64,000 bases of DNA, taken from Candidatus Latescibacterota bacterium. Lineage in GTDB: Bacteria > Latescibacterota > UBA2968 > GCA-2709665. The DNA lies in the NCBI GenBank assembly GCA_965205485.1, contig OZ242180.1, positions 608,001 to 672,000 on the forward strand, in the 5' to 3' direction. The notes beneath the pieces were generated by a model. The model worked only from the letters and a program-made list of their open reading frames with translations. It did no database searches and was not told the DNA's origin. The translations under genes and the position numbers were made by a program. Shown piece by piece: positions 46,956 through 49,503 of this stretch. Numbering within the stretch: position 1 is the first letter of the stretch; every line of letters begins with the position of its first letter.

Positions 46956-49277
46956 TCATCTGCCGGCCACCCGCGCCACCCAGATGCTGAATTCGTAGAG
47001 CAGCACCAGCGGCAGCGCCATCATCAGCTGGGAGATCGGATCCGGCGGCGTGAGCAACGCCGCCAGTACAAAGCCGATCACCACTGCATACCTCCTGCCG
47101 CGGCGCATCAGTTGCGCGGTCAGCAGGCCGATCCGGCTCAGGAAGAACGCCGCCACCGGCAGCTCGAACACGACGCCGAAGGCAACCAGCAGTCTCAACA
47201 CGAAACCGATGTAGAAGCCGATGTCGAACTGCGGGTCGACTCCGGTCCCTTCGCCGATCAGAATCAGGAATCGAAAGGACAGCGGCACCACGCTCACGTA
47301 AGCGATAGCGCCACCCAGGACAAAACAGATCGACGATGAAAAGACGATGAAAGATACGTACCGCCGCTCGGTTGTCAACAGACCCGGCGCAACGAAGATC
47401 CACAGTTGATACAGGAGAACCGGCAGCGCCAGGACCGCGCCGCCAACAAGGGCGATCTGAAGTTTAACGAGAAACATCCCCATTGGTTTCAGATAAATCA
47501 GCTTGACAGGCGGCTCAACGGGCGCCACCCCCAACAGCTTCATGACCGGGGTCGCCTCCCGGACCGGCAACACGAGCCACCCAAGTATATTGTCAGAAAA
47601 TATCCCGCAGATCACCGCGCCCACAGCGAGCGCGGCCAACCCCTTCAGCAGACGCCAGCGGAGTTCCTCCAGATGGTCCAGAAAGGGCATCGGTCTGTCG
47701 TCTGCGCCCGAAGCCGGTTCCGGCGCGGGTTCCGCGGACATGTCCGAATCGGGGGGCAGAATGGAATGCTCTGCAACCACCGCGCGACGCCGGAAGGCCA
47801 TCAACACCAGGACCGCGCCCAGGACCAGGCAGAGCTGCGAGAAAAGGTCTCCGTTTCTCGTATAAAATGTCTTTGCGGTTCGCGGCGTCACCCCCTGAGT
47901 CAAAACTGCCGGATGGAAGATCCCCGTTGTCCCCGACTTCCGTCCCCATGCGTCGATAAACGTGGAAACGCCGGTGTTCGCGCAGCGCACAACCGCCCGC
48001 CGGTTCTCAATGGCGCGAAATACCGCGGCCTCGGCGTGCTGAAAGGGTCCGGAGGTCCGACCGAACCAGCCGTCGTTGGTGATGATCACCAGGAATTCAG
48101 CGCCCAGATCCACGAATGACCTGACGAATCCCGGAAAGACCGAATCGTAACAGATCAACGCGGAAAATCGCGCGCCGGGGCCGTTGAAGACCGTGCGGGT
48201 CTCTCCGGAATCCCAGTTCCCACCCACGAATCCGCCGCCGGTGAACCGGATTTTTCGCAAAAAGGGAAGTATTTCCGGGAACGGCGCCCGTTCGCCGAAG
48301 GGCACCAGGCGAGTCTTGTCGTAGTATCCGGAGATCCCCTTTCCGGGCACGAACAGAAAAGAGGAGTTGAACACCTTCACCGGTTCGCCGGCTTCCAGTC
48401 TGTAGGCACCCGTATAAAGGTAGATGCCGAGCGAGTCCACCATGGCCTGCACCCGCTCGCGATGGCGCCGGTACAGCTCCCCTTCAAGGTAACCGACCGC
48501 CGTCTCGGGCCACACGACCAGCCGTGCCCCCTGACTCGCGGCTTCCGCGGTCATCGGCTTCAGTTTGCCGAAATTATAGTCGAATCCCCGGTATTCCTTG
48601 GCCACCGGGGGCATATCCGGCTGGACCAGGCCCACCGCCACGGCCTGTTCGTCCGGATCGTTCTTCAACGCCAGATACCCGTTCGCCGCCGGTCCCGCAA
48701 AGAGTACGGCCAATGCGGCTGCCCACACCCGGCGCCGCGCCCGGTTCCTCCAGAGCATCATGATGCTCAGATTGACAAGCACAATCCAGAACGACACCCC
48801 GTACACGCCCGTAACTTCCGCGTACTGGATCAGCCTCAGATAGGCCGTCTGCGAGTTTCCCAGCACCACCCAGGGAAACCCCATGTCGCCCAGAGAGTTG
48901 AAATACTCGAACCCGACCCAGAGGAAGGGCGCGCTCCACATCCCCGCAATGCCGTACCGCCTGACCACGCGGGCGAACGTCCACAGGAACAGTCCGCGGA
49001 ACAGGGACATGTAAATCGCCGCCCCGGCCATGCCTGGCGGCGTGATCGATCCGATCCAATAGAGTGTCGTCCCGTAGAAGAAAATCCCCTGGACGAACCC
49101 GGCGCCGAAGGCCTCCCGGCCGCGCACCCGTTCCGCGGAGAACAACAGCGGAATCAGCGCGACGTAAGACAGGAAGCCCAGAGGCAGCGGTGGAAACGCC
49201 GCGCCGAGGACAAGGCCCGAGACCGCAGGAAACAACACCATCCATTTCCAGTCCGTTCCCTGTCGTGCCTCGGTCAT
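46956..49277 (-). CDS. lnt-tatC: Fused apolipoprotein N-acyltransferase (Lnt) and twin-arginine translocase subunit TatC
   Basis: Lnt motifs GFPW, WPET, YDKTRLVPFGE, LICYD, TNDGWFG, RAIENRR, ANTGVS; then MPFLDHLEELRWRL, QLWIFVAPGL, FELP, LTPPDPISQ, LYE of TatC, all in one frame. Confidence 0.93.
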   Translation of the reverse strand: MTEARQGTDWKWMVLFPAVSGLVLGAAFPPLPLGFLSYVALIPLLFSAERVRGREAFGAGFVQGIFFYGTTLYWIGSITPPGMAGAAIYMSLFRGLFLWTFARVVRRYGIAGMWSAPFLWVGFEYFNSLGDMGFPWVVLGNSQTAYLRLIQYAEVTGVYGVSFWIVLVNLSIMMLWRNRARRRVWAAALAVLFAGPAANGYLALKNDPDEQAVAVGLVQPDMPPVAKEYRGFDYNFGKLKPMTAEAASQGARLVVWPETAVGYLEGELYRRHRERVQAMVDSLGIYLYTGAYRLEAGEPVKVFNSSFLFVPGKGISGYYDKTRLVPFGERAPFPEILPFLRKIRFTGGGFVGGNWDSGETRTVFNGPGARFSALICYDSVFPGFVRSFVDLGAEFLVIITNDGWFGRTSGPFQHAEAAVFRAIENRRAVVRCANTGVSTFIDAWGRKSGTTGIFHPAVLTQGVTPRTAKTFYTRNGDLFSQLCLVLGAVLVLMAFRRRAVVAEHSILPPDSDMSAEPAPEPASGADDRPMPFLDHLEELRWRLLKGLAALAVGAVICGIFSDNILGWLVLPVREATPVMKLLGVAPVEPPVKLIYLKPMGMFLVKLQIALVGGAVLALPVLLYQLWIFVAPGLLTTERRYVSFIVFSSSICFVLGGAIAYVSVVPLSFRFLILIGEGTGVDPQFDIGFYIGFVLRLLVAFGVVFELPVAAFFLSRIGLLTAQLMRRGRRYAVVIGFVLAALLTPPDPISQLMMALPLVLLYEFSIWVARVAGR

Positions 49278-49419
49278 CGTGCCTTTTCCTCCGAACCCGC
49301 CTGCCGGAACGTCGCCGGCAGCGGTCTGAAGATTCAGATTGGATTAAAGAAAAACCGGTTGGCCGCAAGCTGTGAGTCCCGCCAACCGGAATGGTTGAAC
49401 CCCACCCAAAAATCACGTT

Positions 49420-49503
49420 AGAATATAAACGAACGGACCCTTTTGTCAAACCGGTACCATGGCCTCCCCTTTGCTTGACAAGCCAGGGGGATTTCCATAA
49501 TTT
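49420..49503. promoter_or_regulatory. Back-to-back sigma70 promoters for lnt-tatC and bioF
   Basis: Minus TTGACA 49449-49444 with TATATT/TATTCT; plus TTGACA 49475-49480 with CATAAT/TAATTT. Confidence 0.6.

Follow-up and report, generated by a model that had tools for sequence, protein, structure and literature searches.

An open reading frame joining Lnt to TatC recurs in Candidatus Latescibacterota and may place lipoprotein N-acylation at Tat export sites

Lnt, the lipoprotein N-acyltransferase (TIGR00546; E. coli structures 5N6H and 5XHQ), and TatC, the core of the twin-arginine (Tat) translocase (PF00902, TIGR00945; A. aeolicus structure 4B4A; cryo-electron microscopy of TatBC and TatAC, PMC13323110), are encoded as one protein by the lnt-tatC fusion gene described here. 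The gene lies in a window of 64,000 nucleotides from a Candidatus Latescibacterota bacterium (lineage Latescibacterota; UBA2968; GCA-2709665; assembly GCA_965205485.1, contig OZ242180.1, forward-strand positions 608,001 to 672,000). The fusion bears on the question of whether the enzymes of lipoprotein processing are arranged together with the export apparatus.

Lipoproteins are acted on by Lgt, then by LspA, which cuts off the signal, and then by Lnt (PMC4941574). TatC is reported to form a trimer with TatB or TatA, the membrane being thinned and the cargo crossing at the periphery of the assembly (PMC13323110), and a single, bifunctional TatA operates in two-component Tat systems (PMC13186574). 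Fusions of TatB to TatC, both engineered and mutant, have also been reported (PMC5102672). Fusion of Lnt to another enzyme is described for mycobacterial Lnt-Ppm1 (Rv2051c / BCG_2070c), in which Lnt comes first and its partner is C-terminal, the two being fused or neighbouring depending on the species, and in which the fused Lnt is active (PMC3850990). That partner is a mannose-donor synthase with no link to export, in contrast to an oligomerising polytopic translocase subunit; the protein described here has no polyprenol-phosphomannose synthase domain, its C-terminal part being TatC, and does not belong to the Lnt-Ppm1 family. Streptomyces has two Lnt enzymes, as do sister families of the present order, and exports about 20% of its lipoproteins via Tat (PMC4941574). 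Streptomyces is monoderm, however, and the passages of that source used here mention no linkage or fusion of lnt to tatC, whereas here Tat lipoproteins account for little of the lipoprotein pool but for much of the Tat cargo.

The lnt-tatC gene and its product

The fusion gene (46956..49277, on the minus strand, as are all features given below) is an open reading frame of 773 residues without an internal stop. The Lnt half (residues 1–497; 47787..49277) consists of a membrane domain, a periplasmic nitrilase-fold domain and a final helix (478–495), and is followed by a 32-residue linker rich in proline and acidic residues (498–529; 47691..47786) and by the TatC half (530–773; 46956..47690), with six helices and the motifs HLEELR, PGLxxxE, FELP and TPPD. 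Pfam matches cover residues 20–170 (LNT_N), 216–448 (CN_hydrolase) and 534–756 (TatC, 208 of 208 profile positions of PF00902), and both TIGRFAM models pass their cut-offs, TIGR00546 with 318 bits (cut-off 132.9) and TIGR00945 with 198.8 bits (cut-off 132.7). An initial annotation, made from the sequence alone, had proposed a complete Lnt joined to a complete TatC, which these matches bear out.

The catalytic residues it had named align with those of E. coli Lnt: Glu258 in WPET (48504..48506) with E267, Lys321 in YDK (48315..48317) with K335, and Cys376 in ICYD (48150..48152) with C387. This triad and E329, the equivalent of E343, are invariant in all 76 Lnt rows aligned. The full-length match, these residues and the fold are shared with E. 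coli-type Lnt, from which the fused enzyme differs in its C-terminal TatC, in its genomic setting and in two positions that changed throughout the order. The equivalent of W237 (residue 228, 48594-48596) is absent from 9/9 rows of the order and present in 67/67 others, and the E389 position (residue 378, 48144-48146) is D in 9/9 and in none of the 67. The equivalent of Y388 is retained here as Y377 and is F in 8/9 rows of the order. E. coli Lnt requires W237, Y388 and E389 among further residues, and the active mycobacterial Lnt keeps five of the seven E. coli-required residues (PMC3850990), so that these three are not family-defining. The E389A mutant of E. coli Lnt still makes the acyl-enzyme, and a role in the lipoprotein step is proposed for E389 (PMC5500890). 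The changes in the order may affect which substrates are preferred.

The TatC half shares with A. aeolicus TatC and the described TatBC and TatAC complexes (PMC13323110) the complete set of profile positions, the six helices and the motifs HLxELR, F-x-x-PGL-x-x-x-E, FExP and PD, which are kept in 56/56 fused rows. In contrast to standard TatC, its N-terminus is extended by a whole membrane enzyme, and its gene stands outside a tat operon. The conserved TatC motifs act in signal binding. Judged from these conserved residues, the fused Lnt would carry out N-acyl transfer and the fused TatC the export of folded proteins, and it is highly probable that the protein is real and that both halves are functional.

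The linker contains seven D/E and six P residues and no stop codon in any of the three minus frames, in agreement with the initial annotation apart from its length, which had been put at about 33 residues. In an AlphaFold2 model (84-row alignment; mean predicted local distance difference test score, pLDDT, 85), it is the sole long low-confidence stretch (499–527, pLDDT <50). Foldseek comparison gives TM(target) values of 0.82–0.85 for the Lnt half against E. coli Lnt and 0.89 for the TatC half against 4b4a, so the model predicts two well-folded domains joined by a disordered linker. Modelled helix 478–495, after the nitrilase domain, corresponds to the expected last Lnt helix, which returns the C-terminus to the cytoplasm, a sidedness that we take over from E. 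coli Lnt; the suggestion that the topologies of the two parts are compatible is thus consistent with the model. A predicted complex of the two halves scored 0.00 in both runs, with no folded control, and counts neither way. Mutual-information covariation across 195 Lnt/TatC pairs (effective depth ~47) gave no coherent between-domain set and is uninformative.

Among six genus-level relatives, all with a fusion of 773 residues, the ratio of nonsynonymous to synonymous substitution rates (dN/dS) is 0.08–0.10 for the Lnt half, 0.03–0.07 for the TatC half and 0.28–0.60 for the linker. These values indicate that both halves are under purifying selection, which is relaxed in the linker.

The continuity of the frame across the linker was examined in assembled contigs from four of 22 listed sequencing runs. 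Contigs from run X1 (47640-48102) and run X2 (47196-48164) cross the linker with zero differences, a single contig from run X5 covers the entire stretch with 127 substitutions and no gap, and in total four contigs span the linker. No insertion or deletion occurs inside the open reading frame in any of the four runs. Runs X1 and X2 may be source material themselves, and greater independence is therefore expected of X5 and X6. Together with the open fused frame throughout the order, these contigs reject an assembly artefact and confirm that the Lnt-TatC fusion is real.

The genome is a single contig, 97% complete, in which one TatC match and one Lnt match exceed the cut-offs, both being the fusion gene; no stand-alone tatC or lnt is present. 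A search of the genome for an Lnb-type acyltransferase gave no match, and a control genome did give one. No tatA or tatB was found near the fusion gene, as the initial annotation had noted, and the single TatA-family match lies ~3.1 Mb away. This single TatA-family gene recalls the two-component TatAC systems (PMC13186574), whose bifunctional TatA fits the one match that most genomes of the phylum have, whether or not they carry the fusion. The genes lgt, lspA and lolA each occur once and are located elsewhere, lgt 1.5 Mb and lspA 2.7 Mb from the fusion. A phoH-pgpH-ybeY-corC string is present elsewhere without lnt after it, the names phoH and pgpH being presumed by us from sequence features. 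This differs from the setting that we take to be that of E. coli lnt, after ybeY-corC.

The single frame could nevertheless yield two products, with TatC made also or mainly from the internal Met at 47690 that opens MPFLDHLEELR, or with the linker cut after synthesis. This Met is conserved in 54/55 fused relatives, anti-Shine-Dalgarno pairing in front of it reaches -5 or better in 15/54, the linker is predicted to be exposed and disordered, and the amounts of TatC and Lnt needed may differ. However, the same Met is internal in unfused TatC as well, where the pairing is stronger (median -5.2, with 17/33 at -5 or below, versus a median of -3.0 in fused genes), and it is thus a structural residue. 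It is Ile in one fused relative (G053), and 41/55 fused linkers have no in-frame ATG. In the present genome the pairing energy is -1.8 before the internal Met and -9.5 before the lnt start, where a Shine-Dalgarno sequence GGAGG lies at 49288..49292. An internal start, which the initial annotation had regarded as a threat to the fusion, is accordingly not supported by a conserved ribosome-binding site, and we consider a two-product gene very improbable.

Distribution and history of the fusion

Named relatives with the fusion belong to Ca. Latescibacterota. This phylum accounts for 18 of the 20 fused loci in one locus set and is the commonest source of an Atlas cluster of 53 members with both domains, and 105 of the best 120 protein matches carry LNT_N, CN_hydrolase and TatC. 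Since their public names give only Lnt, TatC is hidden in the annotations of the whole order. Each of the 52 relatives within the order shows one TatC match. In 51 of them it lies in an open frame of 713–841 residues; in the remaining one a contig end cuts the frame, and Lnt and TatC still share it. No stop occurs in the linkers of the fused relatives, and no reversion to split genes is seen among the 53 genomes of the order.

Regions around tatC, fetched as 5 kb each and in some cases shortened by contig ends, were obtained from 120 of 162 genomes. In the order, lnt is fused to tatC in 23/23 regions. In the sister family f3, 32 regions are fused, 31 have lnt and tatC adjacent and seven do not, and in the sister family f4 two are adjacent and one is not. 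For the class as a whole, 55 of 96 regions are fused, 33 adjacent and eight not adjacent, giving linkage in 88/96; genomes G165 and G029 are scored as fused despite a break in the Lnt frame. Conversely, lnt was near tatC in 0/24 regions from other classes, within the fetched 5 kb, and in a set of 79 loci the 56 that come from outside the group (Calditrichota, Marinimicrobia, Zixiibacteriota, KSB1 and others) all lack lnt within 3 kb of tatC. In a profile search, the best 150 of 1.84 billion representatives included two full-length fused rows and no fusion from outside the class. Among long TatC proteins, coverage extended to the best 120 of 322. A literature search, judged by titles and abstract openings and with most subscription papers outside its reach, found no description of the fusion or of lnt-tatC linkage, in line with the initial suspicion of novelty. 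The Lnt-TatC protein thus represents a recurrent architecture built from two known families, new and apparently undescribed, in which a functional link is plausible but unproven.

Unfused relatives indicate how the frame was formed. In them the stop codon of lnt directly adjoins the start of tatC or overlaps it, with an ATGA overlap in at least 10 of 33 adjacent pairs, and in 7/33, including 4/4 unfused members of genus g27, an in-frame stop is all that separates the two frames. Unfused TatC has its own acidic, proline-rich N-terminal tail ahead of MPFLDHLEELR, so the linker, which by this comparison corresponds to the short C-terminal tail of Lnt plus the native N-terminal tail of TatC, is inherited rather than invented. 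Fused linkers range from 16 to 116 residues and share no sequence.

Trees were built by three methods from concatenated Lnt and TatC without the linker, two of the three having 36 and 27 rows; G165, G129, G099, G041 and G029, in which Lnt is truncated or has a broken frame, were left out together with 17 of the 25 fused rows from g27. Under all three methods the trees require four changes, in the whole order, part of g27, g12 and part of g31, and unfused rows appear both at the base and as sisters to fused rows. The approximately unbiased (AU) test rejects a single clade of all fused rows (p 9e-6) and with it a single origin of the fusion, and for family f3 it likewise rejects a common clade both for the fused rows (p 3e-6) and for the unfused ones (p 4e-10). 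One clade of the g12 and g31 fused rows is only weakly rejected (p 0.021), and the number of fusions is for this reason given as three to four. Change counts alone cannot separate gain from loss, and three to four fusions are the simplest history because f4 and the basal f3 rows are unfused.

The sister families also differ in their number of Lnt enzymes. With at most 10 candidates scored per genome, a single lnt match is found in 52/53 genomes of the order and 34/36 in other classes, and two or more in 62/76 f3 and 2/3 f4 genomes. The additional, stand-alone copy forms a separate long-branched clade (support 100) and follows ybeY-corC in 12/26 f3 loci, whereas the fused enzyme groups with the tatC-linked Lnt of f4 (support 84), in the vicinity of the Lnt that other classes have as their only copy. 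In most f3 and f4 genomes the tatC-linked copy is therefore kept beside another Lnt. Either copy can occur alone, the fused one in this order and the stand-alone one in G058, G097 and G098.

These observations bear on a neutral origin, in which lnt moved in front of tatC in the ancestor of the class, the overlapping genes fused by one small mutation between tolerant cytoplasmic ends, and the fusion drifted to fixation, the halves working independently and gaining nothing from proximity. Such an origin is consistent with the overlapping or stop-separated pairs, with linkers that have no common sequence, and with the grouping of the linked copy with the ordinary single Lnt of the phylum rather than with a new duplicate. 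It is also consistent with other Lnt fusions, including mycobacterial Lnt-Ppm (PMC3850990), and with the lack of a Tat-lipoprotein excess in fused genomes described below. However, linkage persists in nearly all regions of the class although the flanking genes differ between the order and its sister family, the linked copy is retained in most f3 and f4 genomes despite a second Lnt, and none of the 53 genomes of the order has reverted. We therefore regard the neutral origin as possible rather than probable.

Possible placement of Lnt at the Tat translocase

By the reading to which we give slightly better than an even chance, the fusion produces a flexibly tethered bifunctional inner-membrane protein that places Lnt at Tat sites, as a loose co-location. 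The gene would have arisen three to four times in the class by loss of a stop in an overlapping, translationally coupled lnt-tatC pair. Its C-terminal half would be the TatC of the cell, working with the single, probably bifunctional TatA, and the acidic N-terminal tail of TatC itself would serve as a flexible cytoplasmic tether. Lnt and TatC would be produced 1:1. Given that TatC is trimeric and that cargo passes at the rim of the trimer, as many as three Lnt units could stand beside each export site, a disordered tether of 32 residues keeping each within several nanometres of the translocase rim. Tat lipoproteins would then meet a nearby Lnt once Lgt and LspA have acted. We infer co-location, and a benefit from it, rather than a direct hand-over by channelling. 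In this order, all Sec lipoproteins would be finished by the same Lnt.

The load on the fused enzyme was estimated from 4040 genes predicted by our own gene caller. A Sec-type lipobox is present in 116 proteins, compared with 12–22 in shuffled sequences (net roughly 100). Twin-arginine signals were identified with the TIGR01409 model, since a regular-expression count (20) was no better than shuffles (12–17) and was dropped. Seven matches, six of them over the cut-off, belong to homologues of PhoX, DctP, molybdopterin oxidoreductases, a dioxygenase and an NMT1-like protein, and 3/7 carry a lipobox. Tat lipoproteins thus make up ~3% of the likely substrates of the fused Lnt and 3/7 of the detected Tat cargoes, both lipoprotein counts being rough and the model missing divergent signals. 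As the sole Lnt of the order, the fused enzyme is predicted to have to serve Sec lipoproteins as well.

Across the class, 61/159 Tat signals, or about two-fifths, carry a lipobox under one uniform rule (11 fused and 13 unfused genomes, as rows that are not independent). In other classes, where lnt is unlinked, the lipobox occurs at 3/23 resolved top Tat matches, 7/30 loci being unresolved, compared with 35/91 (hand count) for the top four matches per genome in the class. Linkage is thus associated, in a single evolutionary contrast, with Tat cargo rich in lipoproteins, and fusion adds no clear signal. Within the class, two sister contrasts favour the fused genomes (g27, 15/26 fused versus 6/26 unfused; g31, 6/11 versus 4/14). 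An earlier lipobox rule (22/53 fused versus 8/45 unfused) was discarded because it overlooked lipoboxes in genomes without the fusion; most of the difference disappeared under the uniform rule, applied to more genomes.

Several observations weigh against co-location as the reason for the fusion. Tat signals with a lipobox number 37/88 in fused and 24/71 in unfused genomes (Fisher p 0.33), and two sister contrasts run the other way (g12, 4/20 versus 4/10; this order, 12/31 versus 7/16 in f4), so the Tat-lipobox count that the initial annotation had proposed shows three of seven signals here and no tracking of the Tat-lipoprotein share by fusion, with two contrasts for and two against. The contrast between the class and other classes is one evolutionary event, seen in top matches only. 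G058, G097 and G098, the last two being fragmented assemblies, retain tatC with only the stand-alone Lnt type, so the linked copy is dispensable; in G058 3/5 Tat signals have a lipobox. The order-wide loss of W237 and replacement of E389 by D affect residues that E. coli Lnt needs. Finally, the ends of Lnt accept many partners (alpha/beta hydrolase, SNase, LEA_2, PAP2), and fusion alone therefore proves little.

The initial annotation had gone further and proposed a coupled export-and-maturation device for folded Tat lipoproteins. In its tight form, a Tat lipoprotein would pass from TatC to Lnt within one assembly, probably with recruitment of Lgt and LspA, and the linked Lnt would be adapted specifically to folded Tat cargo. 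Two Lnt clades in the sister families, one of them tied to tatC, and the repeated fusion speak for it, as do the W237/E389 changes specific to the order, given the implication of E389 in the lipoprotein-binding step (PMC5500890); channelling between lipoprotein-processing enzymes has so far just been suggested (PMC8689077). However, the enzyme is the sole Lnt in nearly all genomes of the order and faces roughly 100 Sec-type and three Tat-type lipoproteins here, the linker is disordered and variable, and lgt and lspA lie far away. The signal peptide held by TatC is cut off before Lnt acts (PMC4941574), and direct hand-over would therefore need Lgt and LspA. A tight device is unlikely on this evidence. 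The linkage across the class, the repeated fusion and the second Lnt of the sister families lend a link to the Tat route support that the initial annotation had not foreseen, but its restriction to Tat lipoproteins is too narrow for an enzyme that would serve the larger Sec pool.

The tether might instead serve transport. Lnt releases lyso-phosphatidylethanolamine (PMC8689077) and the Tat core makes the bilayer thinner, with transport at its periphery (PMC13323110), so that lysophospholipid released beside the translocase could ease the passage of folded cargo, which would account for a fusion without an excess of Tat lipoproteins. By our own reasoning, however, one lysolipid per lipoprotein is a small flux and lipids diffuse fast. 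Lineages without a linked copy still have Tat cargo. We consider this role the most remote of those discussed.

A broader version of co-location, which we advance with considerable doubt, is that the class keeps an Lnt belonging to the Tat translocase. Linkage and then repeated fusion would build an export site with its own finishing enzyme, beside a housekeeping Lnt in the sister families, possibly with Lgt and LspA joining non-covalently. If so, the fusion would be a natural example of a translocase to which an enzyme that modifies exported proteins is physically attached. It would also give direct genetic evidence for a joint organisation of Tat export and lipoprotein maturation in the membrane. 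The repeated joining hints at such side-by-side export and maturation. The fusion itself indicates that a large membrane enzyme at every N-terminus is compatible with the TatC trimer, a constraint on models of TatA gathering and rim crossing. Because matched fused and split versions exist within genera g27 and g31, together with genomes that have either one Lnt enzyme or two, nature supplies the sequences with which to address the question.

Upstream elements and related proteins

A putative sigma-70-like promoter (TTGACA-16-TATATT, 11/12 positions) lies at 49422..49449, with the same elements in 5/6 genus-level relatives, and the bioF-like gene upstream is oriented away from the fusion gene. 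Between the promoter-like site and the gene, a terminator-like leader hairpin (49346..49389) has a 9-bp stem, a 17-nt loop and a following T-run. It is found in 13/14 genomes of the genus, and beyond the genus as scattered two-mismatch matches; an Rfam search of the region matched no family. The hairpin at 49346-49389 is a possible attenuator or short RNA.

Among stand-alone f3 Lnt proteins, several have a C-terminal alpha/beta-hydrolase-like domain (L476:2206-4641, L481:2113-4578, L491:2629-5001 and L493:2623-5007), and a separate hydrolase gene follows lnt in G054, G056, G058, G114, G117 and G124. This hydrolase is possibly a lysophospholipase coupled to the by-product of Lnt. Distant Lnt homologues include PAP2-Lnt, Lnt-SNase and Lnt-LEA_2 fusions (P0207, P0217, P0230), and P0160 and P0170 have ~330 extra residues without a Pfam match.

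The long TatC frames in G062, G085 and family f10 were not Lnt fusions. In f10 (L131-L135; G071, G076), TatC has an acidic N-terminal extension of 150–200 residues with a conserved SIHPLG motif; genomes of this family have 79–98 Tat-signal matches each and no lnt-tatC linkage. In L113 (G085, 57% complete), a ferredoxin-like, RnfB-type frame runs into TatC; it is absent from four fetched congeners and is probably an assembly join. TatC of f3 (L049, L045 and other f3 tatC loci) carries an insertion of ~40–70 residues after the first helix, periplasmic by analogy.

The tatA gene belongs to a conserved string of truA, an HtrA-like protease gene, (psd), a pssA-like gene, DUF4321, tatA and gatA (L247 = G000:C1:3789000-3808000; L238-L252), which lies 7–12 kb upstream of lnt-tatC in f3 and far off in this order. 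The products of psd and pssA make phosphatidylethanolamine, the acyl donor of Lnt. A second promoter-like site (47351-47378) lies within the TatC half, upstream of genes for a Na/Ca exchanger, rmlB and rmlC.

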